64,000 nucleotides of DNA, from NCBI GenBank assembly GCA_049521895.1, contig JBEKOJ010000001.1:162717-226716 (forward strand). Direction: 5' to 3'. The notes below the pieces were generated by a model. The model was not told the origin of the DNA. It saw nothing but the letters and a program-made list of their open reading frames with translations, and searched no databases. The translations under genes and the position numbers were made by a program. Position 1 is the stretch's first letter. Each line of letters opens with the position of its first letter. Below are positions 9,078 to 57,039 of the stretch, in pieces. Origin of the DNA: Candidatus Saccharimonadales bacterium. GTDB taxonomy: Bacteria; Patescibacteriota; Saccharimonadia; Saccharimonadales; UBA10212.

Positions 9078-9081
9078 ACAA

Positions 9082-9180
9082 CCATTTTACATTTTTCACT
9101 TGGCATTTGACATTTATTTACCATTGTTAAATGTTCAATGCTAAATTAATGTAAATTGAAAATTGTAAATTGAAAATTCA
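9082..9180. repeat. Low-complexity quasi-palindromic spacer repeat, family A (CATTT/ACC arm and AAATG/TAAATTG arm)
   Basis: The 5' arm ccattttacatttttcacttggcatttgacatttatttaccattg faces the 3' arm caatgctaaattaatgtaaattgaaaattgtaaattgaaaatt. It shares the core GCATTTGACAT with the copies at 28983 and 37111. Confidence 0.6.
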
Positions 9181-10906: not shown

Positions 10907-10930
10907 ATTATCTCTTGAGCATTATTTTCT

Positions 10931-10958
10931 ATAAAAAGACCTTGGCGATTTACCAAGG
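10931..10958 (-). terminator. Putative intrinsic attenuator hairpin in the rplJ leader
   Basis: The minus strand reads CCTTGG-taaatcg-CCAAGG followed by TCTTTTTAT, about 25 nt upstream of the rplJ ATG. Confidence 0.45.
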
Positions 10959-11094
10959 ACTACAGAAGATGTCTGCACAACAATACATTGCGCGTTAACC
11001 TCGGTAGCAGATTAAGCCCGCTTGTCGCGGGCAGCTACTGTCTTTGGCAATCTAATAGTAGATTAGCACAACCTGCAACTTCTTACAAGTCCTA
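10959..11094 (-). promoter_or_regulatory. Candidate L10(-L12) autoregulatory leader
   Basis: This 188-nt untranslated gap holds nested stems (GTAGC..GCCCGC-gacaa-GCGGGC..GCTAC) upstream of the attenuator. The position matches known rplJ leaders, but identity was not verified. Confidence 0.35.
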
Positions 11095-15381: not shown

Positions 15382-15401
15382 AAGCTCCTTTCGGTCGCTT
15401 T

Positions 15402-15476
15402 AGGAACTAGAAACAAGGAACTAGGAACTAGTTTCAGCGCGATTCGCTTGTTGCTTGTTACTTGTTTCATGTTGCT
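15402..15476. repeat. Low-complexity quasi-palindromic spacer repeat, family B (GGAACTAG arm)
   Basis: The arm aggaactagaaacaaggaactaggaactag (29/30 identical to 26242-26271) faces cttgttgcttgttacttgtttcatgttgc. It fills the nusG-rplK spacer. Confidence 0.65.
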
Positions 15477-19196: not shown

Positions 19197-19224
19197 TCGT
19201 CGGAATCGACATGTTAGAATTATA

Positions 19225-19422
19225 CCTTAAAATTCTCTTGTGCCCGTTGCAGCCAAGGGAAAGGTAGTAGCACCGGTCCCGCCAAAGGCGGGATTCGGAT
19301 CTACTCCAAAAGGTGCGTTGGCGAATGCAGCCGCGGAGGCAAAATTGTGTTTATGTAATTTTGCTGAGCAGCGAGGGAGGTCGCGGAGCAACCAGGAAAA
19401 CCGCATGGTTGTCCTTCAAGTT
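19225..19422. ncRNA. G+C-rich structured intergenic element, copy Z (paralog of 24726-24892 and 55952-56200)
   Basis: Contains hairpins CCGGTCCCGCC-aaa-GGCGGGATTCGG and GCAAAATT-gtgtttatgt-AATTTTGC, followed by GAGCAGCGAGGGAGGTCGCGGAGCAAC. Strand and function are unknown. Confidence 0.35.
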
Positions 19423-19626
19423 TTACCTGCGGGGCTTTACTTCGTTGCGACCCAAATTTTTCTTTGTTTCTGATTGTTCAGCAATAGTATGTTTTATCGG
19501 GCAATATTTCTTAAGCTCCACTTTATCAGGCGTATTCATAGTGTTTTTAGTTGTATAGTAATGGCGTTGCCCGCAAGCTTCACATACAAGCCCAACAATT
19601 TTTCGCTTCTCGCTTTTTTTAGCCAT
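19423..19626 (-). CDS. rpmG: 50S ribosomal protein bL33
   Basis: MAKKSEKRKIVGLVCEACGQRHYYTTKN..KKYCPIKHT fits the bL33 pattern. I chose the ATG at 19626. Confidence 0.85.
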   Translation of the reverse strand: MAKKSEKRKIVGLVCEACGQRHYYTTKNTMNTPDKVELKKYCPIKHTIAEQSETKKNLGRNEVKPRR

Positions 19627-23589: not shown

Positions 23590-24693
23590 CTAATCTTTCG
23601 GCCGTAAGCCCACCGCCTTTTGTACTTTCAGCAGAGCTGCATTGGCAACTTCATTCATGGCTTTTTCATCGTCAGCTAGTTTTTGCATTAGCTTATCTTG
23701 GTTGACCTGGGCTAATTTAGCCTGGAAATCAGCCAAGAAAACTTTTACAGCGTCCGATACGGCTTTTTTGAGCTCGCTATAGCCAGATTTGCCCTGCCAT
23801 TGCCCATTTACCGCTGTCTGAGGCTTATCTAATAACAGGGCTAAGATTTGCAGCAAGTTAGTGACGCCGGGCTGCTTTTCCCAGTCATAGCTAATTGATT
23901 CTAGTGAATCGGTAGTGGCGCCCAAAACTTTTTTGGCGGCTTCGTCTGGACTATCACTAAGCATAATCGTACCTGCCGGGTCTTCTACGCTCTTGCTCAT
24001 CTTCTTTTCAGGGTTGCGCAGGCTGCGGATACGAACCGGCTCACTATGGCCGGCGAATTCCATCTGTTTGGCGTTATCCTCGGGCAGTACAAATAAATCA
24101 TCGCCGAATTTATTATTTATCCGAATGGCCAGATCGCGGGTAAATTCCACGTGTTGTCGTTGGTCTTCGCCTACCGGGACCCACTTAGCGCCGTAAAGTA
24201 GGATATCCGCAGCCATCAGCACCGGATAATTAAATAGGCCTGCTGTTACGCCAGCCTTCCGAATTTTTACATCTATCGTATCTTCTTTATCGAAATCCAC
24301 GTCGACAGCACCAGTTGACTCTATTAAGTTTAGCGACTTATCTTTGAATTCTGTCATGCGCGATAACTCACCAAAGTGGGCAAAGCAATCAAGGACCCAT
24401 GTCATCTCGGAATGGGCCGGGATATAGCTTTGGCGGTAAATAAAGGTATTGGGCTCTTCGATATCCAGTCCGGCTGCTACAAAAACCTTCAAATTCTTGA
24501 GGGACTGGTCATATAAATTTCCGTGATCAATAGGCGTAGTAAAGCTGTGCAGGTCTGGTACAAACATGTTCAGCTGATACTGCCCAGCGTGCTTTTTTTG
24601 CAGCTCCACCATCGGTAGAATAGCACCCAAATAGTTGCCTAGGTGAAACTCGGCATTAGATCGCAGCCCGGTTAAAATGACCTCTTTGCTCAT
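23590..24693 (-). CDS. trpS: Tryptophan--tRNA ligase
   Basis: Class I motifs are present: FHLGNYLG (HIGH-like) and KMSKS. The architecture is TrpRS-like, 367 aa. Confidence 0.9.
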   Translation of the reverse strand: MSKEVILTGLRSNAEFHLGNYLGAILPMVELQKKHAGQYQLNMFVPDLHSFTTPIDHGNLYDQSLKNLKVFVAAGLDIEEPNTFIYRQSYIPAHSEMTWVLDCFAHFGELSRMTEFKDKSLNLIESTGAVDVDFDKEDTIDVKIRKAGVTAGLFNYPVLMAADILLYGAKWVPVGEDQRQHVEFTRDLAIRINNKFGDDLFVLPEDNAKQMEFAGHSEPVRIRSLRNPEKKMSKSVEDPAGTIMLSDSPDEAAKKVLGATTDSLESISYDWEKQPGVTNLLQILALLLDKPQTAVNGQWQGKSGYSELKKAVSDAVKVFLADFQAKLAQVNQDKLMQKLADDEKAMNEVANAALLKVQKAVGLRPKD

Positions 24694-24701
24694 TACGATT
24701 C

Positions 24702-24707
24702 ATTATA
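24702..24707 (-). promoter_or_regulatory. -10 box TATAAT 8 nt upstream of the trpS ATG (near-leaderless)
   Basis: The minus strand reads gTTATAATgaatcgtaATG, with no SD. Confidence 0.4.
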
Positions 24708-24725
24708 ACTTAACTCATCGCGAGG

Positions 24726-24892
24726 AAGATAGCTTTGCGTTTGGGTGCAGTGCAAGGCGCCAGCGAGGAATGGACTGAGCTGTATTGTAATACTGCGAAG
24801 GAGTACCGTAGCTGGCAACGCCGCGATGCGCCAAAAGCCCGACGGAGCTGCTGGCTCCGCTAGCAGGCAGGTCGGGCGGCGCAAGCTATCTT
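24726..24892. ncRNA. G+C-rich structured intergenic element, copy Y
   Basis: The closing stem AAGATAGCTTTGCG / CGCAAGCTATCTT encloses GCGCCAGCG, the hairpin GCTGTAT-tgta-ATACTGC, GAAGGAGTACCGTAGCTGGCAAC, GCGATGCGCCAAAA and the hairpin GCCCGAC..GTCGGGC. Confidence 0.35.
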
Positions 24893-25287
24893 TTGGTGAA
24901 CTGGCGTTGCTTGCGGGCGCCGCGTAACCCAAACTTCTTGCGTTCTTTTTCGCGCGGATCGCGACCTAGTAGGTCGGCTTTTTTTAGTGTTCCGCGGTAA
25001 TCTTCGTTTATCTCTACCAAAGCTTTGGCGATTCCGAGCCTGATAGCGTCCACCTGGCTAGCGTGTCCGCTACCAGTAACTTTGGCGCTGATAATATACT
25101 CTTCGGGATTTAGCTCCAAGACGGTAAAGGCTTTAAGCAGTTCATTTTGTAGTCTTTTGCTACCGGCGAAATATTCGTCGGCGGTTTTACCATTGACCAC
25201 AAATGAGCTCTTGCCACGCGACAGTCGCACCCGCGCAGCCGCACTTTTGCGTCGCCCTAAGGCATAAAAATAACTGTTAGTGGCCAT
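24886..25287 (-). CDS. rpsI: 30S ribosomal protein uS9
   Basis: The C-terminus ..RDPREKERKKFGLRGARKQRQFTKR is canonical uS9. Confidence 0.96.
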   Translation of the reverse strand: MATNSYFYALGRRKSAAARVRLSRGKSSFVVNGKTADEYFAGSKRLQNELLKAFTVLELNPEEYIISAKVTGSGHASQVDAIRLGIAKALVEINEDYRGTLKKADLLGRDPREKERKKFGLRGARKQRQFTKR

Positions 25288-26218: not shown

Positions 26219-26241
26219 TACGCGCTTCCTCCGGAGGCTAT

Positions 26242-26306
26242 AGGAACTAGGAACAAGGAACTAGGAACTAGTTTTTCCTGTTTCCTGTTTCCTGTTTCCT
26301 GTTTCC
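26242..26306. repeat. Low-complexity quasi-palindromic spacer repeat, family B, with (CCTGTTT)x4
   Basis: The arm aggaactaggaacaaggaactaggaactag is followed by tttttCCTGTTTCCTGTTTCCTGTTTCCTGTTTCC. The arms pair as AGGAA/UUCCU blocks with regular mismatches. Confidence 0.7.
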
Positions 26307-27926: not shown

Positions 27927-28038
27927 AATTATCAATTTACAATTATCAATTCTCAATAATTTAGCATCTGTCATCTGCCATTGATCAAATGAAAAATGTG
28001 AAATTAATGGTAAATGGTAAATGGGATATGGTAAATGG
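27927..28038. repeat. Low-complexity quasi-palindromic spacer repeat, family A (about 85% identical to 34041-34138)
   Basis: Reads attatcaattctcaataatttagcat...gccattgatcaaatgaaaaatgtgaaattaatggtaaatggtaaatgggatatggtaaatgg. Confidence 0.7.
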
Positions 28039-28924: not shown

Positions 28925-28960
28925 TAAAAGCCTCTCGTGGATATATTTATCATTGAGCAT

Positions 28961-29083
28961 TTATCATTGAGCATTGATTTAACAGGTAGCATTTGACATT
29001 GTTCGGAATTGCTAAATGAGAAATGAGAAATAAATGGTAAATGTGAATTGGTAAATGTGAATTGGAGCAATTTCATTGCGACT
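28961..29083. repeat. Low-complexity spacer repeat, family A variant
   Basis: Contains aggtagcatttgacattg and aaatgagaaatgagaaataaatggtaaatgtgaattggtaaatgtgaattgg. A tandem atttatcattgagc x2 sits at 28945-28972. Confidence 0.6.
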
Positions 29084-34040: not shown

Positions 34041-34138
34041 ATTATCAATTTTCAATAATTTAGCATTTAGTAATTGGCCATTGGTAAATGACAAATGAGA
34101 AATTAATGTGAAATGGTAAATGGGATATGGTAAATGGG
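34041..34138. repeat. Low-complexity quasi-palindromic spacer repeat, family A (about 85% identical to 27941-28038)
   Basis: Reads attatcaattttcaataatttagcatttagtaattggccattggtaaatgacaaatgagaaattaatgtgaaatggtaaatgggatatggtaaatggg. Confidence 0.7.
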
Positions 34139-34159: not shown

Positions 34160-34429
34160 CTACCAACTGCTCTTAGTTACGCCCGGTATCTCACCCTTGG
34201 AAGCGTGCTCACGGAAGGCGATACGGCTTAAGCCGAACTGACGCATATAACCGCGCGAGCGGCCGGTCTCGGCACAGCGGTTCTTGCGGCGGGTAGGGCT
34301 GGAATTGCGCGGTAACAGATGAAGACCTTCATAATTGCCGGCGGCCTTAAGCTCAGCCCGCTTAACGGCATACTGGTCGATCATCCTTAGGCGCTTGGCA
34401 TCGCGCGCTAATACAGATTTCTTGGCCAT
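34160..34429 (-). CDS. rpsN: 30S ribosomal protein uS14 (long, non-zinc type)
   Basis: [13 protein letters not shown].. with the C-terminus ..[21 protein letters not shown] is canonical uS14. Confidence 0.95.
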
Positions 34430-34562
34430 TATTTGCGCCCTCCGGGCTTATGAAGACAACCTACGGTTTTCCTCATCGAACCTTTTGGAATAAATCCAAA
34501 TTCGCCTCGCGAACCGGTTATACTCTTTTCCCTTAGGTTAACTACTACTGTAAATGATTTCA
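34430..34562 (-). promoter_or_regulatory. Structured intercistronic leader upstream of rpsN (paralog of the rplB leader)
   Basis: The minus strand reads TAAGGGAAAAGAG..hairpin..CGATGAGGAAAACCGTAGGTTGTCTTCATAAGCCCGGAGGGCGCAAATAATG. Compare 39349-39460. Confidence 0.45.
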
Positions 34563-37071: not shown

Positions 37072-37185
37072 TATTTACCATTGACCATTTGCCATTTTCC
37101 AGTGATTTACCAGGTAGCATTTGCCATTGGTTAGATAAAAAATCAGCAATAAATGTTAAATGTAAATTGTTAAATGTAAATTGGA
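37072..37185. repeat. Low-complexity quasi-palindromic spacer repeat, family A (inverted orientation)
   Basis: tatttaccattgaccatttgccattttccagtgatttaccaggtagcatttgccattgg faces caataaatgttaaatgtaaattgttaaatgtaaattgg. Confidence 0.65.
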
Positions 37186-38514: not shown

Positions 38515-39348
38515 TTATCTCCTCTTCCCCTGGTGGCGGGTTCTTACGATAAACTTACTGCTAATATTGCGGCGGCGGGTTTTATACCCAAGGGTTTTCT
38601 GGCCCCAAGGTGTCCGGGGGTCTTTTTCAGTACCGTGCTTACCCTCGCCACCACCATGCGGATGGTCAGCGGCGGCCATGACTACACCGCGGACCGTTGG
38701 CCTGATACCCATGTGACGCTTGCGGCCGGCCTTGCCGATTTGGATATTTTGATGCTGCTCATTGCCCACGGTGCCAACAGAGGCCATACAGTCAACGTGT
38801 ATCATTCTAATTTCTCCACTAGGTAATCGCACTTGGGCATATTTTTCTTCTTTTGCTATAAGTTGTGCGCCGGCCCCGGCGGTGCGGGCCAGTTGGGCGC
38901 CCCGGCCTGGCTGAAGCTCAATAGCATGTATAGTTGTACCAGTTGGGATGTTTTTAATTGGCAAGCGGTTGCCCCGTTCGATGGAGGCTTCTTCGCTCAC
39001 ATTGACCTTTCGGCCAACTCGCATCCCTTTGGCGGCTAAGACGTAGTGGTGGTTGCCATCTTGGTCAATGACTCTGGCAATTCTAGCGCTACGGTTGGGG
39101 TCGTATTCTATATGTTCAATGGTCGCGCTTGTACCCACGGACGGCTTAAAATTAACCATGCGGTAATACCGTCTGGCGCCGGCGCCGCGATGACGGGTGG
39201 TAATTCGCCCCTGGTTATTGCGGCCCACAGAACCTTTTTTAATGCGAATTAGGCTGCGCAGCGGTTTATCGGTAGAAATGCCAGCAAAATCCTGGCTGCT
39301 CATGCCGCGGCGACTTGGAGTTGTAGGTTTGTAAGCTTTAACGGCCAT
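38515..39348 (-). CDS. rplB: 50S ribosomal protein uL2
   Basis: MAVKAYKPTTPSRRGMS.. and ..HPHGGGEGK.. are canonical uL2. I chose the ATG at 39348. Confidence 0.96.
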   Translation of the reverse strand: MAVKAYKPTTPSRRGMSSQDFAGISTDKPLRSLIRIKKGSVGRNNQGRITTRHRGAGARRYYRMVNFKPSVGTSATIEHIEYDPNRSARIARVIDQDGNHHYVLAAKGMRVGRKVNVSEEASIERGNRLPIKNIPTGTTIHAIELQPGRGAQLARTAGAGAQLIAKEEKYAQVRLPSGEIRMIHVDCMASVGTVGNEQHQNIQIGKAGRKRHMGIRPTVRGVVMAAADHPHGGGEGKHGTEKDPRTPWGQKTLGYKTRRRNISSKFIVRTRHQGKRR

Positions 39349-39460
39349 TATTTGCGCCTCCGGCTTATAAGACAAACCTGGCGGTTTTTCTCATCGCGCC
39401 GGCAAAATAAAATACATTTTGTCGGGCTGCTCTTTTCCCTATAGCTATTCAGCTGCATCA
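39349..39460 (-). promoter_or_regulatory. Structured intercistronic leader upstream of rplB (paralog of the rpsN leader)
   Basis: The minus strand reads TATAGGGAAAAGAG..CCGACAAAAT-gtatttt-ATTTTGCCGG..CGATGAGAAAAACCGCCAGGTTTGTCTTATAAGCCGGAGGCGCAAATAATG. Confidence 0.45.
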
Positions 39461-52220: not shown

Positions 52221-55200
52221 TTAAGTGCCCTCCGTCATTTCATTGCTAATTTCAATCGCTTCTTCATTCAGTTCAACATCATTTACACTGGAAGGCGCTT
52301 CTTCCTCGCTGACGCCAAACTCAGTAACTACATCATCAACCGATACATCTGTAGTCGGTAGTGCGCTGCTATCAGGTAAATCCACTGTAGGTGCATGCTT
52401 GCTTTCATCCTTGATATGTTCGGCTAGCACCTGCTCAGCATCAACTACTTTGTTGTCAGCCAATAGGTCAACTTTTAGTCCTAGTCCTTGCAGCTCTTTT
52501 ACCAGCACGTTAAAGCTTTCCGGCACTTTGGGGCCTTGAATTTCAGTGCCTTTGATAATACTTTCATAGGCTTTGGCTCGACCGTAAACATCATCTGACT
52601 TAATGGTCAACATTTCCTGAAGAGTATTAGCGGCACCATAAGCTTCCAGTGCCCAAACTTCCATTTCGCCGAAGCGCTGGCCACCGTTTTGAGCCTTACC
52701 GCCCAGCGGCTGTTGGGTAACCATAGTGTAGGGGCCGGTAGAGCGGGCGTGAATTTTATCACTAACCATGTGATTGAGTTTGATGATGTACATACTTCCA
52801 ACAGTCGTACGCTCGGCAAACGCTTCACCGGTACGACCATCGTAAAGTTGCTGCTTGCCATCTTCTGGCAACCCAGCCTGTTTAAGCAGTTCCTGAATTT
52901 TCTTAATCGGTACACCGTTAAAAGCTGGACTGGCTACGTGGATGCCCAAGGCGCGAGCGGCCATACCGAGATGGGTCTCAAACAGTTGGCCGATATTCAT
53001 ACGGCTAGGTACGCCCAGCGGGTTTAAGATAACGTCTATTGGTGTACCGTTTCCGTTAAAGGGCATATCTTCAACCGGCAGGATTCGGGCTATAACACCT
53101 TTATTGCCGTGGCGTCCGCCTAATTTATCACCCACAGAAATCTTGCGCATTTGTGCCACGAAGACTTGGATTTGCATAATGACGCCGGCTTTAAGTTCGT
53201 GTCCGGAGGCACGCGAAAAGACTTTAACACCGACCACCTTGCCGTGGCGTCCGGTACTCATCCGTTGGGAAGTATCGCGAACCTCTTTGGCTTTCTCGCC
53301 AAAAATAGCCCGGAGTAGTCGTTCTTCGCTGGATAACTCTTGTTCGCCCTTAGGAGTAATTTTACCGACCAAGATGTCGCCAGGATGGACTTCGGCGCCA
53401 ATACGCACAATGCCGTCCTCGTCTAGATGCCTGAGCGACTCTTCAGATACATTAGGGATGTCGCGGGTAACAATTTCCGGGCCTAGTTTGGTCTCGCGCA
53501 CTTCAGTCATATAGTCCACGATATGGATAGAAGTAAGGGTATCGTCTTCTACCAAACGGCGGGAAATGATAATGGCATCTTCGAAGTTATAGCCAGCCCA
53601 CGGCATAAAAGCCGTTAACAGATCTTTGCCCAGAGCCAGCTCGCCACCTGCGATGCTCATGCCTTCAATGAGTATATCGCCGGCCTTTACTTTATCGCCG
53701 CTACTTACTAATACAGTCTGATTGATAGAGCTGCCCTCGTTACTGCGCACGAAGTGCTGGGGTTCATAGGCGACATTTTTACCATTTTTGTACTTGACTA
53801 TCACCTCGTCAGCGGTGGCCTTTTGAACCACGCCGTCAGCCTCAGCCTGTACTATTTGGCCGCTGTTTTGGGCGGCAATAACTTCAAAGCCAGTGCCAAC
53901 GATCGGGCTTTCAGGCTTGATAAGGGGCACTGCCTGACGCTGCTGGTTAGAGCCCATCAGTGAGCGCAACACGTAATTTTTTTCTACGAACGGTATCAGA
54001 CCGGCGCTGCTACCGATGGTCTGGGAGCGCGAAGCATCCATATGGGTGACCTCACTAGCGTCAACTTCGCCTGGAGCCAATCGGTTACGGGCACTAACAC
54101 GACTATCAATAAAATAATTATTTGCATCTATTGGGTTACCGGCGCCAGCTATTACGGCTTGCTCTTCTTCAGCAGCATCAAGATAAACAATCTTGTTAGT
54201 AACTTTAGCCTTTACCGGCCACGTGGTCTGGCTTTTATTAGCGGCCAATTTCTTAGCGGCAGCCTCAGTGATTTTAGCCCCGGCCTTAATTATGACTGTG
54301 CCGCGTTCGTTGGCTAAGTCCACAGCGGCAATATGGCCGGCGGCTTCTTTAGCGGTAACCGCATTAATAACTTTTCTGTAGGGGGTCTCAATAAAGCCGT
54401 ACTCATTAATATGGGCATAGCTGGCTAAATTAAGTACCAGGCCAATATTAGCGCCCTCTGGTGTTTCTACTGGACAGATACGGCCATAGTGTGTGGCGTG
54501 GGCGTCGCGTACTTCAAAGCCGGCGCGTTCCCTTGATAGCCCGCCTGGGCCCATGGAACTTAAGCGGCGTTTGTGGGCTAGCTCGCTCAACGGGTTGATT
54601 TGATCCATGAACTGGCTTAGCTGCGAACTAGCAAAAAACTCGCGCACGGCGGCAACTACAGGGCGGGCATTTGTGAGCTGTGCTGGTGTAACTGTCTCAA
54701 GATCAGACATACTCATACGGTCTTTAGCATTGCGCTCCATTCTAAGCAGACCGATGCGGAACTGGCGCTGCACCAGCTCGCCTACCAACTTAACACGCCG
54801 GTTAGCCAGACTATCTATCTCGTCCGCTGGTTCCTGAGTCACATTCATACGGATAATTTCGGCCACAATAGCTACGATGTCATCAATTCGCAGAACGCGG
54901 TTGTCGATAGTATTGGGGACGTCCAGATTCAGGCGCTTATTAATTTTGTAACGGCCGACACGGCCAAAATCAAAGCGCTTAAAGTTATAGAACATGTTTT
55001 CCAGTAGTGAACGAGCATTGTCTACGGTCGCCAGATCACCTGGGCGTAAGCGCCGGTAAACCTCAATTAATGCTTCGTTGGTACTTCTTGTCGGATCTTT
55101 TTCCAGTGTTGCATCGATGTAGTTAATCTGGCCTTGATCAACGTGTTTAAAGGCGTTTTTAATAGCCTCTTCAGTCATACCCAATGCGCGCAATAAGGTA

Positions 55201-55769
55201 GTAACGGCAATCTTGCGCTTGCGGTCAATTTTCACATACAGCGCGCCATTAGCGGCTGTCTCAAATTCCAGCCAGGCTCCACGCACCGGAATAATTTTTG
55301 CACCATATAAATTGGTGGTACCGTGGCCATCGGCGGTAAAAAACACGCCGGAACTACGGATAAGCTGGCTAACAACCACTCGCTCGGCGCCGTTAATTAC
55401 AAAAGTGCCGCGGCTAGTCATCCACGGATAATCCCCCAGATAAATTTCTTGTTCTTTGATTTCGCCAGTAACTTTATTAGTCAGCTCGACTGTCGCTTTT
55501 AGGGGCGCCTCATAACTCACGTTATTTTCGCGAGCTTCAGCTTCGGCCATTTTAGGGTCTTCAAAGTGATAGTCCTTGAAGACAATACTTAGTTTCGTTC
55601 CCGTGTAATCATCAATCGGGCTGATCTCTGCCAGCAGTTCGCCCAAACCTTCTTCTACGAACCAAGCAAACGAGTTGTTTTGGTGTTCCACCAGGTTAGG
55701 CGGACTTAATACATCATCTGACTTGGTAAAGTACGTGCGCTCTACACTTAAGCCCAATTTTTTGGCCAT
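52221..55769 (-). CDS. rpoB: DNA-directed RNA polymerase subunit beta
   Basis: 1182 aa with rpoB motifs (..GRHGNKGVI.., ..FGEMEVWALEAYGAA..). Confidence 0.98.
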   Translation of the reverse strand: MAKKLGLSVERTYFTKSDDVLSPPNLVEHQNNSFAWFVEEGLGELLAEISPIDDYTGTKLSIVFKDYHFEDPKMAEAEARENNVSYEAPLKATVELTNKVTGEIKEQEIYLGDYPWMTSRGTFVINGAERVVVSQLIRSSGVFFTADGHGTTNLYGAKIIPVRGAWLEFETAANGALYVKIDRKRKIAVTTLLRALGMTEEAIKNAFKHVDQGQINYIDATLEKDPTRSTNEALIEVYRRLRPGDLATVDNARSLLENMFYNFKRFDFGRVGRYKINKRLNLDVPNTIDNRVLRIDDIVAIVAEIIRMNVTQEPADEIDSLANRRVKLVGELVQRQFRIGLLRMERNAKDRMSMSDLETVTPAQLTNARPVVAAVREFFASSQLSQFMDQINPLSELAHKRRLSSMGPGGLSRERAGFEVRDAHATHYGRICPVETPEGANIGLVLNLASYAHINEYGFIETPYRKVINAVTAKEAAGHIAAVDLANERGTVIIKAGAKITEAAAKKLAANKSQTTWPVKAKVTNKIVYLDAAEEEQAVIAGAGNPIDANNYFIDSRVSARNRLAPGEVDASEVTHMDASRSQTIGSSAGLIPFVEKNYVLRSLMGSNQQRQAVPLIKPESPIVGTGFEVIAAQNSGQIVQAEADGVVQKATADEVIVKYKNGKNVAYEPQHFVRSNEGSSINQTVLVSSGDKVKAGDILIEGMSIAGGELALGKDLLTAFMPWAGYNFEDAIIISRRLVEDDTLTSIHIVDYMTEVRETKLGPEIVTRDIPNVSEESLRHLDEDGIVRIGAEVHPGDILVGKITPKGEQELSSEERLLRAIFGEKAKEVRDTSQRMSTGRHGKVVGVKVFSRASGHELKAGVIMQIQVFVAQMRKISVGDKLGGRHGNKGVIARILPVEDMPFNGNGTPIDVILNPLGVPSRMNIGQLFETHLGMAARALGIHVASPAFNGVPIKKIQELLKQAGLPEDGKQQLYDGRTGEAFAERTTVGSMYIIKLNHMVSDKIHARSTGPYTMVTQQPLGGKAQNGGQRFGEMEVWALEAYGAANTLQEMLTIKSDDVYGRAKAYESIIKGTEIQGPKVPESFNVLVKELQGLGLKVDLLADNKVVDAEQVLAEHIKDESKHAPTVDLPDSSALPTTDVSVDDVVTEFGVSEEEAPSSVNDVELNEEAIEISNEMTEGT

Positions 55770-55886
55770 GCGAAAGCAATACTCCCTGCTTTTATTTAAT
55801 AAACGCCTTAGCGAAGCCCACTACGTTCGGCGATGCAAATTGTATTTAATACAGCAAGCACCAAAGTACACTACTTCTTAGCCTAT

Positions 55887-55915
55887 ATTGTATTGATCTG
55901 GGGATAAACCGTCAA
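55887..55915 (-). promoter_or_regulatory. Sigma-70-like promoter for rpoBC (TTGACG-N17-TACAAT)
   Basis: The minus strand reads aaCTTGACGgtttatccccagatcaaTACAATata, about 115 nt upstream of the rpoB ATG. Confidence 0.5.
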
Positions 55916-55951: not shown

Positions 55952-56200
55952 GACTATCTTATTCGGAGACCGTTCACGCGCGGAGGGTGCCTCGCCTGAG
56001 CCGCTTAAACATTATAGCGTCTCCGCGGCGCACCGCACCGGCTCCACTTGGGGTATGGTGAATCTCCGAAGTAAGATAGTCGTCGCTTCCCGCAGGTAAA
56101 AGTTTGAGTAAAGCGCCAGGCGGCGCCGAGAAGCAAGCGAAACGTATTGTGATATACGTTGAGCGAGCATCGCAGGTGGCAACAATGCGATTTGCCAAAA
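55952..56200. ncRNA. G+C-rich structured intergenic element, copy X
   Basis: An 18-bp closing stem GACTATCTTATTCGGAGA (55952-55969) / TCTCCGAAGTAAGATAGTC (56063-56081) is followed by the shared module GCGCCAGGCG..AACGTAT-tgtgat-ATACGTT..GAGCGAGCATCGCAGGTGGCAAC..TGCGATTTGCCAAAA. Confidence 0.4.
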
Positions 56201-56202
56201 TT

Positions 56203-56802
56203 TTATCTGCTGGTAATCACCTTATCGACCAGGCCATATTTCTTGGCTTCTTCGGCAGTCATCCAATAGTCTCGGTCAACATCTTTTTCGATTTTACTGA
56301 CCGGCTGGCCGGTGTTTTTTGCTAAAATCTCGTTGAGTAGCCTCTTCAACCGCAGGCCTTCTTTTAGGTCAATCTCCAGGTCGCTGATTTTAGCCCGCTG
56401 GGCGGCACTACTTGGTTGGTGAATCATCACCGTAGCATGCGGTAACAGCAGTCGCTTGCTCTTGGTACCCGAACTCAGCAGGATAGCCGCCGCGCTGGCA
56501 TTAACACCGATACCGACAGTTTGAATGTCAGATTTGACAAATTTCATGGTGTCATAAATACCAAGCGCATGGTAAACGCTACCACCGGGGCTATTTATGT
56601 AAAAGATGATGTCTTTAGTCGGATCTTGGTTCTCTAGAAAAAGCATCTGGGCAACTACCAAGTTGGCTGTGTGCTCATTAACTTCGTCACCTAAGAAGAT
56701 AATGCGGTCTTTAAGCAGACGGCTATAGATATCGTAAGCCCGCTCAAAGCGCCCCTCTTGCTCAATAACGGTTGGCACTAAGATCTGTGATTTTGTGGAC
56801 AT
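56203..56802 (-). CDS. clpP: ATP-dependent Clp protease proteolytic subunit
   Basis: 199 aa with ..INSPGGSV.., the active-site region ..[11 protein letters not shown].. (Ser) and MIHQP (His). Confidence 0.96.
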
Positions 56803-56810
56803 GCATATAG

Positions 56811-56838
56811 TTTATAAAAATTAGCACTCGTAAGTCAA
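56811..56838 (-). promoter_or_regulatory. clpP promoter TTGACT-N16-TATAAA, 8 nt from the ATG
   Basis: The minus strand reads cTTGACTtacgagtgctaattttTATAAActatatgcATG. The -35 box and spacer lie inside the CIRCE palindrome. Confidence 0.5.
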
Positions 56839-56847
56839 GAGTGCCAA
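56821..56847. promoter_or_regulatory. CIRCE-like inverted repeat (HrcA operator) TTAGCACTC-N9-GAGTGCCAA
   Basis: Matches 17 of 18 arm positions of the CIRCE consensus TTAGCACTC-N9-GAGTGCTAA, with exact 9-nt spacing. Confidence 0.65.
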
Positions 56848-56999
56848 CACATGTTGCAGATAGGGTTGGTCTGGGTAGGTTTAGCTTGTTTGATTTTTCC
56901 GAAGCCCTGAGCGAGATGTATCCGTTGATACATTGAGCTGGACTGGAGGAAAAAGCAGCAAGATAAGCCTGTTCCAGGCAGGCCTAGCGGTGATATGTG

Positions 57000-57030
57000 T
57001 TAGTACTCTTGGCTTGGTCAAGAGTGCCAA
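57000..57030. repeat. Degenerate second copy of the CIRCE-like element (13-nt spacer)
   Basis: TTAGTACTC-ttggcttggtcaa-GAGTGCCAA shares the exact 14-mer GTCAAGAGTGCCAA with 56834-56847. It lies directly after the tig stop. Confidence 0.45.
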
Positions 57031-57039
57031 TTTAATCGG

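Follow-up and report, generated by a model that had tools for sequence, protein, structure and literature searches.

What kind of element fills the G+C-rich, structured spacer between clpP and rpoB in this Saccharimonadales genome, and does it belong to a family? The window, by which we mean the whole stretch of 64,000 nucleotides analyzed here, is a ribosomal-protein and RNA-polymerase region of the Saccharimonadales (Saccharibacteria/TM7), with a G+C content of 48.6% and genes that lie nearly all on the minus strand. A preliminary description, made from the sequence alone, had proposed a family of three paralogous structured elements in this region: X, between clpP (56802..56203, minus strand) and rpoB (55769..52221, minus strand); Y, between rpsI (stop codon at 24886-24888) and trpS (start at 24693); and Z, between rpmG and tRNA-Trp.

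Many of the features that it pointed out are readily confirmed. The G+C-rich appearance of the three stretches, judged by eye at the time, holds up when counted: Y has a G+C content of 0.59, X as first delimited 0.55, and Z 0.53, against a median of 0.43 (range 0.27-0.53) in 23 other spacers of the window. The central hairpins are present at 56141-56160 (X), 24779-24796 (Y), and 19339-19364 (Z), as is an 18-bp closing stem with one bulge (55952-55969 / 56063-56081), and the words GCGCCAG(G)CG, ..GGCAAC, and GCGAT..GCCAAAA are found in both X and Y. Each of the three stretches is also more stable than its shuffles on both strands (folding z of -2.9 to -4.7). A search of X, Y, and Z against Rfam (release 15), at gathering and permissive (E ≤ 10) thresholds, returned no family matches, in keeping with the earlier remark that copy X resembles no known RNA family. 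Sigma-54 promoters, integron attC core sites, and T-box sequences were compared by eye and none fit, and tblastx of X, Y, and Z against the relatives' spacers and the genes inserted there gave nothing that would suggest a coding remnant.

Two other observations on the window can be recorded here. Its sole non-tRNA Rfam match is an L10 leader (RF00557, 55.9 bits) upstream of rplJ (10923-11065, minus strand). A separate, A+T-rich intergenic repeat family occurs inside the ribosomal-protein cluster, with up to 88% identity over 98 nt; it includes the pairs 27942-28038 / 34041-34137, 28944-29066 / 37072-37185, and 15384-15434 / 26224-26274, and the remaining members are 34424-34478 / 39343-39396 and 9081-9178. 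They could be promoter or terminator cassettes that recur, or members of another repeat family.

Are X, Y, and Z related to each other? Only partly. The Smith-Waterman score of X and Y is 31, compared with 16.8 ± 2.6 for shuffles, and was equalled by one of 300 shuffles; the alignments of X with Z (145 of 300 shuffles score as well) and of Y with Z (32 of 300) are at chance. The initial caveat that X and Z match each other best is, therefore, reversed, because only the similarity of X and Y exceeds that of shuffles. When a sequence profile of X and Y was run across the window, it recovered neither Z nor any further copy.

For a more sensitive comparison we relied on a covariance model (R1) built from six full copies, namely Y and five metagenomic copies (see below), with X left out of the build. 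With filters off and a threshold of E ≤ 10, cmsearch of the window returned Y at 167.8 bits and X (56087-56215) at 70.5 bits (E = 1.6e-13), and a family profile finds X by nhmmer with E = 5e-14 over 56100-56200. Under the same settings, R1 matched neither Z (19225-19422) nor the hairpin at 55952-56081, and each of these, searched alone with sequence profiles, was without a match. Of the proposed three-member family, the kinship of X and Y thus stands, and Z drops out. The interval first assigned to X needs a similar correction: it does contain a family copy, which extends 15 nt beyond the end originally given, but its other part (55952-56081) is a separate, adjacent hairpin.

The window holds two family copies only. 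A third candidate returned by R1 (56859-56988, 25.8 bits) was rejected as probably spurious; it lies in the tig-clpP spacer (56803-57039) between two CIRCE-like inverted repeats, and its hairpin is kept in relatives that do not have the family. These inverted repeats, TTAGCACTC-N9-GAGTGCCAA at 56821-56847 and a second near 57000-57030, probably reflect HrcA-type heat-shock control of clpP. The hairpin between them is preserved, with covarying bases, in the relatives L020, L055, and L001.

Copy X (56087..56215, plus strand) is a truncated family member, in which the long hairpin is retained and the 3' P5 hairpin arm is missing (45 model positions deleted), and its 3' end runs into the clpP stop codon. 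In its closing stem, P1, 14 of 15 pairs form between a 5' arm, GCAGGTAAAAGTTTG (56092..56106, plus strand), which leads into P2, and a 3' arm, CAAAATTTTATCTGC (56196..56210, plus strand). On the minus strand, this 3' arm overlaps with the end of clpP, namely its last two codons and the stop codon (56203-56205). The clpP ending, ...CAGATAA, is host sequence; the relative L003 has the same. The central hairpin of X, AACGTAT-tgtgat-ATACGTT (56141..56160, plus strand), is helix 5 of the family, with an invariant GUAU/AUAC.

How does the X spacer compare with those of relatives? When species-representative genomes were scanned with ClpP, ~55 Saccharimonadales loci were found in which the gene order tig-clpP-rpoB is preserved. 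Across ~50 Saccharimonadales species, only window positions 55773-55892 of this spacer are conserved; the relatives' spacers share the rpoB-proximal 120 nt, which hold the promoter and a conserved 5' UTR, and the stretch from ~55950 to the clpP stop codon is absent from them. Contigs of the same species are uninformative on conservation because they are 100% identical in this region. The conserved rpoB promoter (TTGACG-17-TACAAT, 55887..55915, minus strand) lies downstream of X and outside the element. Copy X is, then, a decayed family copy without P5, situated upstream of the rpoB promoter and antisense to the flanking operon.

The rpoB 5' UTR (AAGAAGUAGUGUACUUUGG ... CGUAGUGGGCUUC; window 55773-55915, minus strand) deserves a comment of its own, being highly conserved in many Saccharimonadales species. 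RNAalifold predicts a closed stem in it, for which covariation says little because almost all pairs are invariant. It has no counterpart in Rfam, and we regard it as a candidate leader motif for rpoB.

Copy Y (24724..24894, plus strand) is full-length and folds as a three-way junction made up of P1, a long arm (P2-P3-P4-central hairpin), and the P5 hairpin. Its P1 arms are GGAAGATAGCTTTGCG (24724..24739, plus strand) and CGCAAGCTATCTTTT (24880..24894, plus strand), and the latter overlaps the stop codon (24886-24888) and last codons of rpsI on the minus strand. The central hairpin is GCTGTAT-tgta-ATACTGC (24779..24796, plus strand), and P5 occupies 24837..24877 on the same strand. Read on the minus strand, P5 is a G+C-rich hairpin that comes immediately after rpsI and leads into UUUUGG, which gives it a terminator-like look; a simple terminator consensus scan made no call here because the U-run has four residues, not five. 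Of six relatives, five have an rpsI-trpS spacer of 26-29 nt and the other has one of 82 nt, compared with ~190 nt in the window. Both X and Y are insertions into otherwise short spacers and are absent from the orthologous spacers of relatives.

On the far side of the Y spacer, at trpS (24694-24715, minus strand), TTATAAT ends 8 nt before the ATG and no Shine-Dalgarno sequence is seen; in relatives TTATAAT is followed by GGAG. The trpS mRNA may be leaderless, or nearly so, in the lineage of the window.

What, then, of Z and the 55952-56081 hairpin, which are not family members? Both are lineage-specific structured inserts. The spacer that holds Z (19225..19422) measures 223 nt in the window versus 44 nt and 89 nt in two relatives (L089 and L119, respectively). 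The other is a branched hairpin of 130 nt (55952..56081), closed by the 18-bp stem and adjoining X; it is absent from the relatives' clpP-rpoB spacers. A comparison of the two with ~1.1 Mb of related loci gave no homolog and no repeat family, and they may represent other element families or small RNA genes. On the plus strand, Z is bracketed by a promoter-like TCGACA-16-TAAAAT (10/12; 19206-19233) and a terminator-like hairpin followed by UUCAAGUUUUA (19394-19424). Given these two signals, Z could be an independent antisense small RNA of ~180 nt, one with no Rfam match.

To find further members of the family, metagenome contigs were scanned with a 24-nt pattern for the word shared by X and Y, TTTTGGCNNATCGCNNNGTTGCCA (minus strand). 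The scan gave 19 stretches, of which 11 (five distinct sequences) are homologous to Y over ~170 nt, well beyond the pattern, and weaker family copies lie nearby in the same loci. Y and its metagenomic counterparts (six full copies aligned) have a mean identity of 77-80%. A search with R1 over 785 kb of fetched loci found 11 distinct copies, and additional loci were reached through the spurious "hypothetical proteins" that overlie copies. Taking the scan and its follow-up together, ~20 distinct copies are present in 10 loci outside the window, with the highest density in L115 (five copies in 20 kb). The loci are Saccharimonadales, as judged for one of them from the names in its NrdR cluster. 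Across ~750 kb from ~60 other Saccharimonadales loci, R1 found zero copies.

Intergenic copies are found between FtsZ and NrdR (two species), between atpB and atpE (two species), between RNR and IleRS, and upstream of yebC and several other genes, and those in spacers occur in both orientations relative to the neighbor genes. Two copies (L115 4042-4210 and 6331-6491) are without P5, like X. The flanks are unrelated between copies and contain no conserved promoter or terminator. In the flanks of 19 copies we found no target motif or target-site duplication; among the annotated neighbors of copies no transposase was seen, nor was a RAYT gene in the loci examined. Two scans of viral contigs with conserved family words gave no trace of the family, a profile of the insert peptide matched only short spurious open reading frames in protein databases, and a search of the accessible literature turned up no paper that links elements of this kind with Saccharibacteria, Patescibacteria, or CPR.

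Is it the sequence or the structure that is conserved in these copies? The element is ~175 nt long, and its three-way junction consists of a closing stem (P1, ~13 bp), a long arm (P2, P3, and P4 with internal loops, and a terminal hairpin with the invariant GUAU/AUAC), and P5, a G+C-rich two-part hairpin. For the six full copies RNAalifold gives one fold on either strand, at -70.1 kcal/mol (window plus strand) versus -58.5 kcal/mol (minus strand), with 24 and 21 double-change pairs, respectively. Among 11 distinct copies, 93.4% of the pairing cells are paired, compared with 72.7% in shuffles and at most 38.5% in slid controls. Both sides have changed in 42 of 59 pairs. This count was made on an alignment that was in part fitted to the model; alignments by MAFFT agree with it. 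The loop sequences, too, are conserved across copies. The fold is preserved between orthologs as well: at the first insertion site in IleRS (described below), the copies of L118 and L117 differ at 38 of 174 positions, and seven of their pairs are doubly compensated.

Protein-level conservation was considered along with structure. Differences fall at codon positions 1, 2, and 3 in numbers of 462, 500, and 490, which is no codon periodicity; the frame shared by X and Y, inspected by eye, shows no third-position bias; and a Pfam search of the encoded peptides found no domain. For X and Y, the preliminary description was correct in calling the conserved property a structure and not a protein.

In the orientation of the window plus strand the helices contain 36 G-U and seven A-C pairs. 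Because G-U pairs far outnumber A-C pairs, the selected form would be a single strand of window plus polarity, either RNA or single-stranded DNA. The strand of the family is probably the plus strand of the window, that is, antisense to the flanking genes.

The closing stem follows a rule of its own. The sequence of P1 differs in every copy and yet always pairs, with double changes in 12 of 13 P1 pairs. Its outer part is variable; what recurs is the innermost P1 bases and P2 (YGCR-TTTGG ... CCAAA / GCGGYGCR). In at least eight copies the P1 3' arm (plus orientation) is host sequence, and the 5' arm is extra DNA complementary to the host. For X this host sequence is the clpP stop codon and two codons, and for Y it is the rpsI stop codon and two codons; in relatives it is the start region (ribosome-binding site plus start codon) of nrdR and yebC, or IleRS codons. 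In the single young insertion at hand (site 2 of IleRS), P1 is only ~8 bp long and consists partly of pre-existing host bases. At the end of rpsI in L119 (9915-9945) there is a hairpin that corresponds to P1 only, GAGATAACTTTG-GGCGCG-CAAAGCTATCTC, with no element core; over 12 nt, its distal arm and the P1 arm of Y are identical. Either the core has been lost here and this is its footprint, or the hairpin is an empty target. Possible sources of a copy-specific P1 are guide-like pairing with the target, templated extension of quasi-palindromes, and selection.

A further question is whether the family is confined to spacers. It is not: five copies, all in relatives, lie inside genes (two sites in IleRS, two in Dus, and one in TatD), and all five are sense, in-frame, and stop-free; inside the window no copy lies within a gene. 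At IleRS site 1, 59 residues separate FPL from LLAWTTTPW, where the Thermus enzyme has eight and uninterrupted Saccharimonadales enzymes read FPLTSD-PTTK-LLAW; this insert is common to three lineages whose proteins are as little as 72% identical. The second IleRS site is occupied in L118 and vacant in its close relative L096 (their enzymes are 87% identical), and the insert comprises 156 nt plus one extra codon. At this single filled/empty pair there is no target-site duplication, and there are no flanking direct repeats. Dus carries two inserts of 59 and 60 residues, removal of which restores the canonical motifs LAPMDDVTD..FRQIIAT|DLFMTEF and MIN|FDGVDLNFGCP, and the single insert of TatD immediately precedes AIGETGLDY. 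Another copy makes up the 5' end of the L21 gene call (L117 7125-7631).

Judging from the open frames, the in-gene copies are inferred to be translated as a tolerated loop of ~55-60 residues. The antisense frames of copies are also often open, so the all-sense pattern needs another cause; we infer that the antisense orientation is kept out of genes since P5 with its UUUU resembles a terminator. Annotation is affected as well. Intergenic copies have been annotated as hypothetical proteins of 52-92 residues (e.g., HYU82_02800), and the gene calls of L21 and Dus are lengthened, by ~60 residues (L117 7125-7631) and ~120 residues (L101 5014-6330), because the family copies are open in-frame.

Which known systems does the family resemble? 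Rickettsia palindromic elements (RPEs), described by Ogata et al. in 2000 and 2002 and summarized in PMC10969869, are dispersed elements of ~150 bp, roughly half of which lie in-frame inside metabolic genes. The Saccharimonadales family is, likewise, a short (about 150-175 nt), dispersed, multi-copy, hairpin-forming repeat in a reduced genome, with copies in spacers and in-frame, stop-free insertions in unrelated conserved genes that add a peptide segment, and no associated transposase is known for either. Unlike RPEs, it has a three-way junction with a copy-specific closing stem whose 3' arm is often host sequence, and covariation and a G-U strand bias are documented for it. RPEs belong to the Alphaproteobacteria and the present family to the Patescibacteria; because these are different phyla, common descent is unlikely, and the likeness is an analogy, not membership.

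Bacterial MITEs, such as Correia/NEMIS, ERIC, and QMITE1 of Coxiella (PMC10969869, PMC2229807), are also non-autonomous, structured, multi-copy, and occasionally inside genes, and may give their neighbors terminator-like or ribosome-binding-site-overlapping hairpins. The family seems to differ from them at its ends, where long terminal inverted repeats are not evident and conservation is partial and confined to the innermost bases of P1/P2; it also has no target-site duplication at the one filled/empty pair and no known parent insertion sequence. REPs (REP/REPIN, mobilized by RAYT transposases) are 20-40 nt long, carry a GTAG or CGTC tag, and lie outside genes (PMC3733652). The points in common are that recognition would be by structure rather than by a long sequence, that the signature depends on the strand, as would be expected if the substrate were a hairpin of single-stranded DNA, and that copies sit at gene ends; at ~175 nt, however, the family is branched and also intragenic. 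With the structured RNAs of Rfam it shares covariation-supported helices, conserved loops, and a preferred strand, but it matches no Rfam family, and its genomic behavior is that of a repeat and not of a gene at a conserved locus.

We consider it probable that X and Y represent a dispersed mobile repeat, structured and non-autonomous, which is present in a subgroup of the Saccharimonadales and analogous to RPEs. Its behavior is that of a mobile element because it is dispersed and multi-copy and occurs in-frame inside IleRS, Dus, and TatD as well, even though no transposase, classical terminal inverted repeats, or target-site duplication were found for the family in the loci examined and the window itself carries only two copies. 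The element would spread as selfish DNA, in the manner proposed for RPEs, and selection would act on the single-stranded form of the window plus strand, be it a transcript or a single-stranded DNA intermediate. Copies inside genes would be translated and tolerated as a loop, and antisense copies would be barred from genes by presenting a hairpin and then a U-run. At Y, the element sets such a hairpin and UUUU right after rpsI.

Several other explanations have to be weighed against a mobile repeat. The paralogous RNA genes or regulatory elements implied by the preliminary description do not fit the finding that X and Y are lineage-specific insertions, that X is upstream of the rpoB promoter, and that other copies are in-frame in genes. 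As cis-regulatory leaders or attenuators (e.g., T-box-like), X would act on rpoB and Y on trpS, which they do precede on the minus strand, and in certain relatives the ribosome-binding sites and start codons of genes such as nrdR and yebC lie under the P1 3' arm. This explanation is largely refuted, and we give it next to no credence: relatives have neither copy in the orthologous spacers, there is no T-box or other Rfam match, and the family also sits beside unrelated genes and inside genes. With the better-supported strand running antisense to rpoB and to trpS, and with X preceding the conserved promoter, it is unlikely that the copies serve as leaders of these genes or as a housekeeping RNA gene. 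A family of trans-acting small RNA genes, with each copy giving its own plus-strand RNA and the in-gene copies incidental, would account for the strong covariation, the conserved loops, the strand-specific G-U excess, and the fold kept between orthologous copies, and would be new to Rfam. It is nevertheless very unlikely when flanks are unrelated and hold no conserved promoter or terminator, when copies are in-frame inside open reading frames, truncated (X; L115 4042-4210 and 6331-6491), or packed at up to five per 20 kb, and when most Saccharimonadales are without the family.

The fact that P1 juxtaposes both flanks in every copy, and that the fold is conserved even in IleRS with one P1 arm made of coding sequence, could suggest an intervening sequence at the RNA level (an intron or a translational bypass), in which P1 joins the flanks and the element is removed or skipped and stays untranslated. 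Neither splicing nor bypass would require that all five in-gene copies be in-frame and stop-free (by a rough estimate from frame counts, the chance of being open in-frame is ~0.2 per copy). Moreover, Rfam shows no ribozyme or intron match, and a simple three-way junction of 175 nt is below the size of known self-splicing introns; we think this explanation highly unlikely. It is extremely improbable, too, that the family is a mobile peptide-coding module or small gene under protein-level selection. One frame ("QGASEER.E.Y...QLATQRFAKS") is indeed open in most copies and is what has been called as hypothetical proteins, but substitutions are without codon periodicity, stop codons interrupt that frame in Y, L094, L096c, and L101c, no Pfam domain is recognized, and compensatory pairing accounts for the conservation.

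To return to the mobile repeat, its compensatory changes, conserved loops, and G-U bias exceed what a dead selfish insert needs, and are compatible with some role for the element as RNA. We think it unlikely, though worth stating, that the element is more than passive DNA in one of two ways: it may insert through guide-like pairing of its 5' arm with the target flank, reminiscent of intron exon-binding sites or bridge RNAs, or its three-way junction may be a functional RNA domain kept by the host, in mRNAs as well as in spacers. If true, a host-kept RNA domain would explain the compensatory changes between orthologous IleRS copies and the G-U strand bias.

What does the family mean for those who work on these genomes? 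For the window itself, the idea of a new regulatory RNA ahead of rpoB or trpS is removed. There is also a cost in annotation, in the form of hypothetical proteins of 52-92 residues, lengthened Dus and L21 calls, and broken IleRS alignments. At the same time the family is a clean data set, with many copies, filled and empty sites, and compensated orthologs, for asking what keeps such elements folded and how they choose their sites.

Saccharibacteria genomes are among the smallest and most compact in bacteria, and a proliferating repeat is unexpected in them for that reason. The element is, all the same, tolerated in essential genes such as that for isoleucyl-tRNA synthetase. If these copies are the mobile repeat that we take them for, the remodeling of proteins by selfish DNA that occurs in Rickettsia extends even to ultra-reduced episymbionts.
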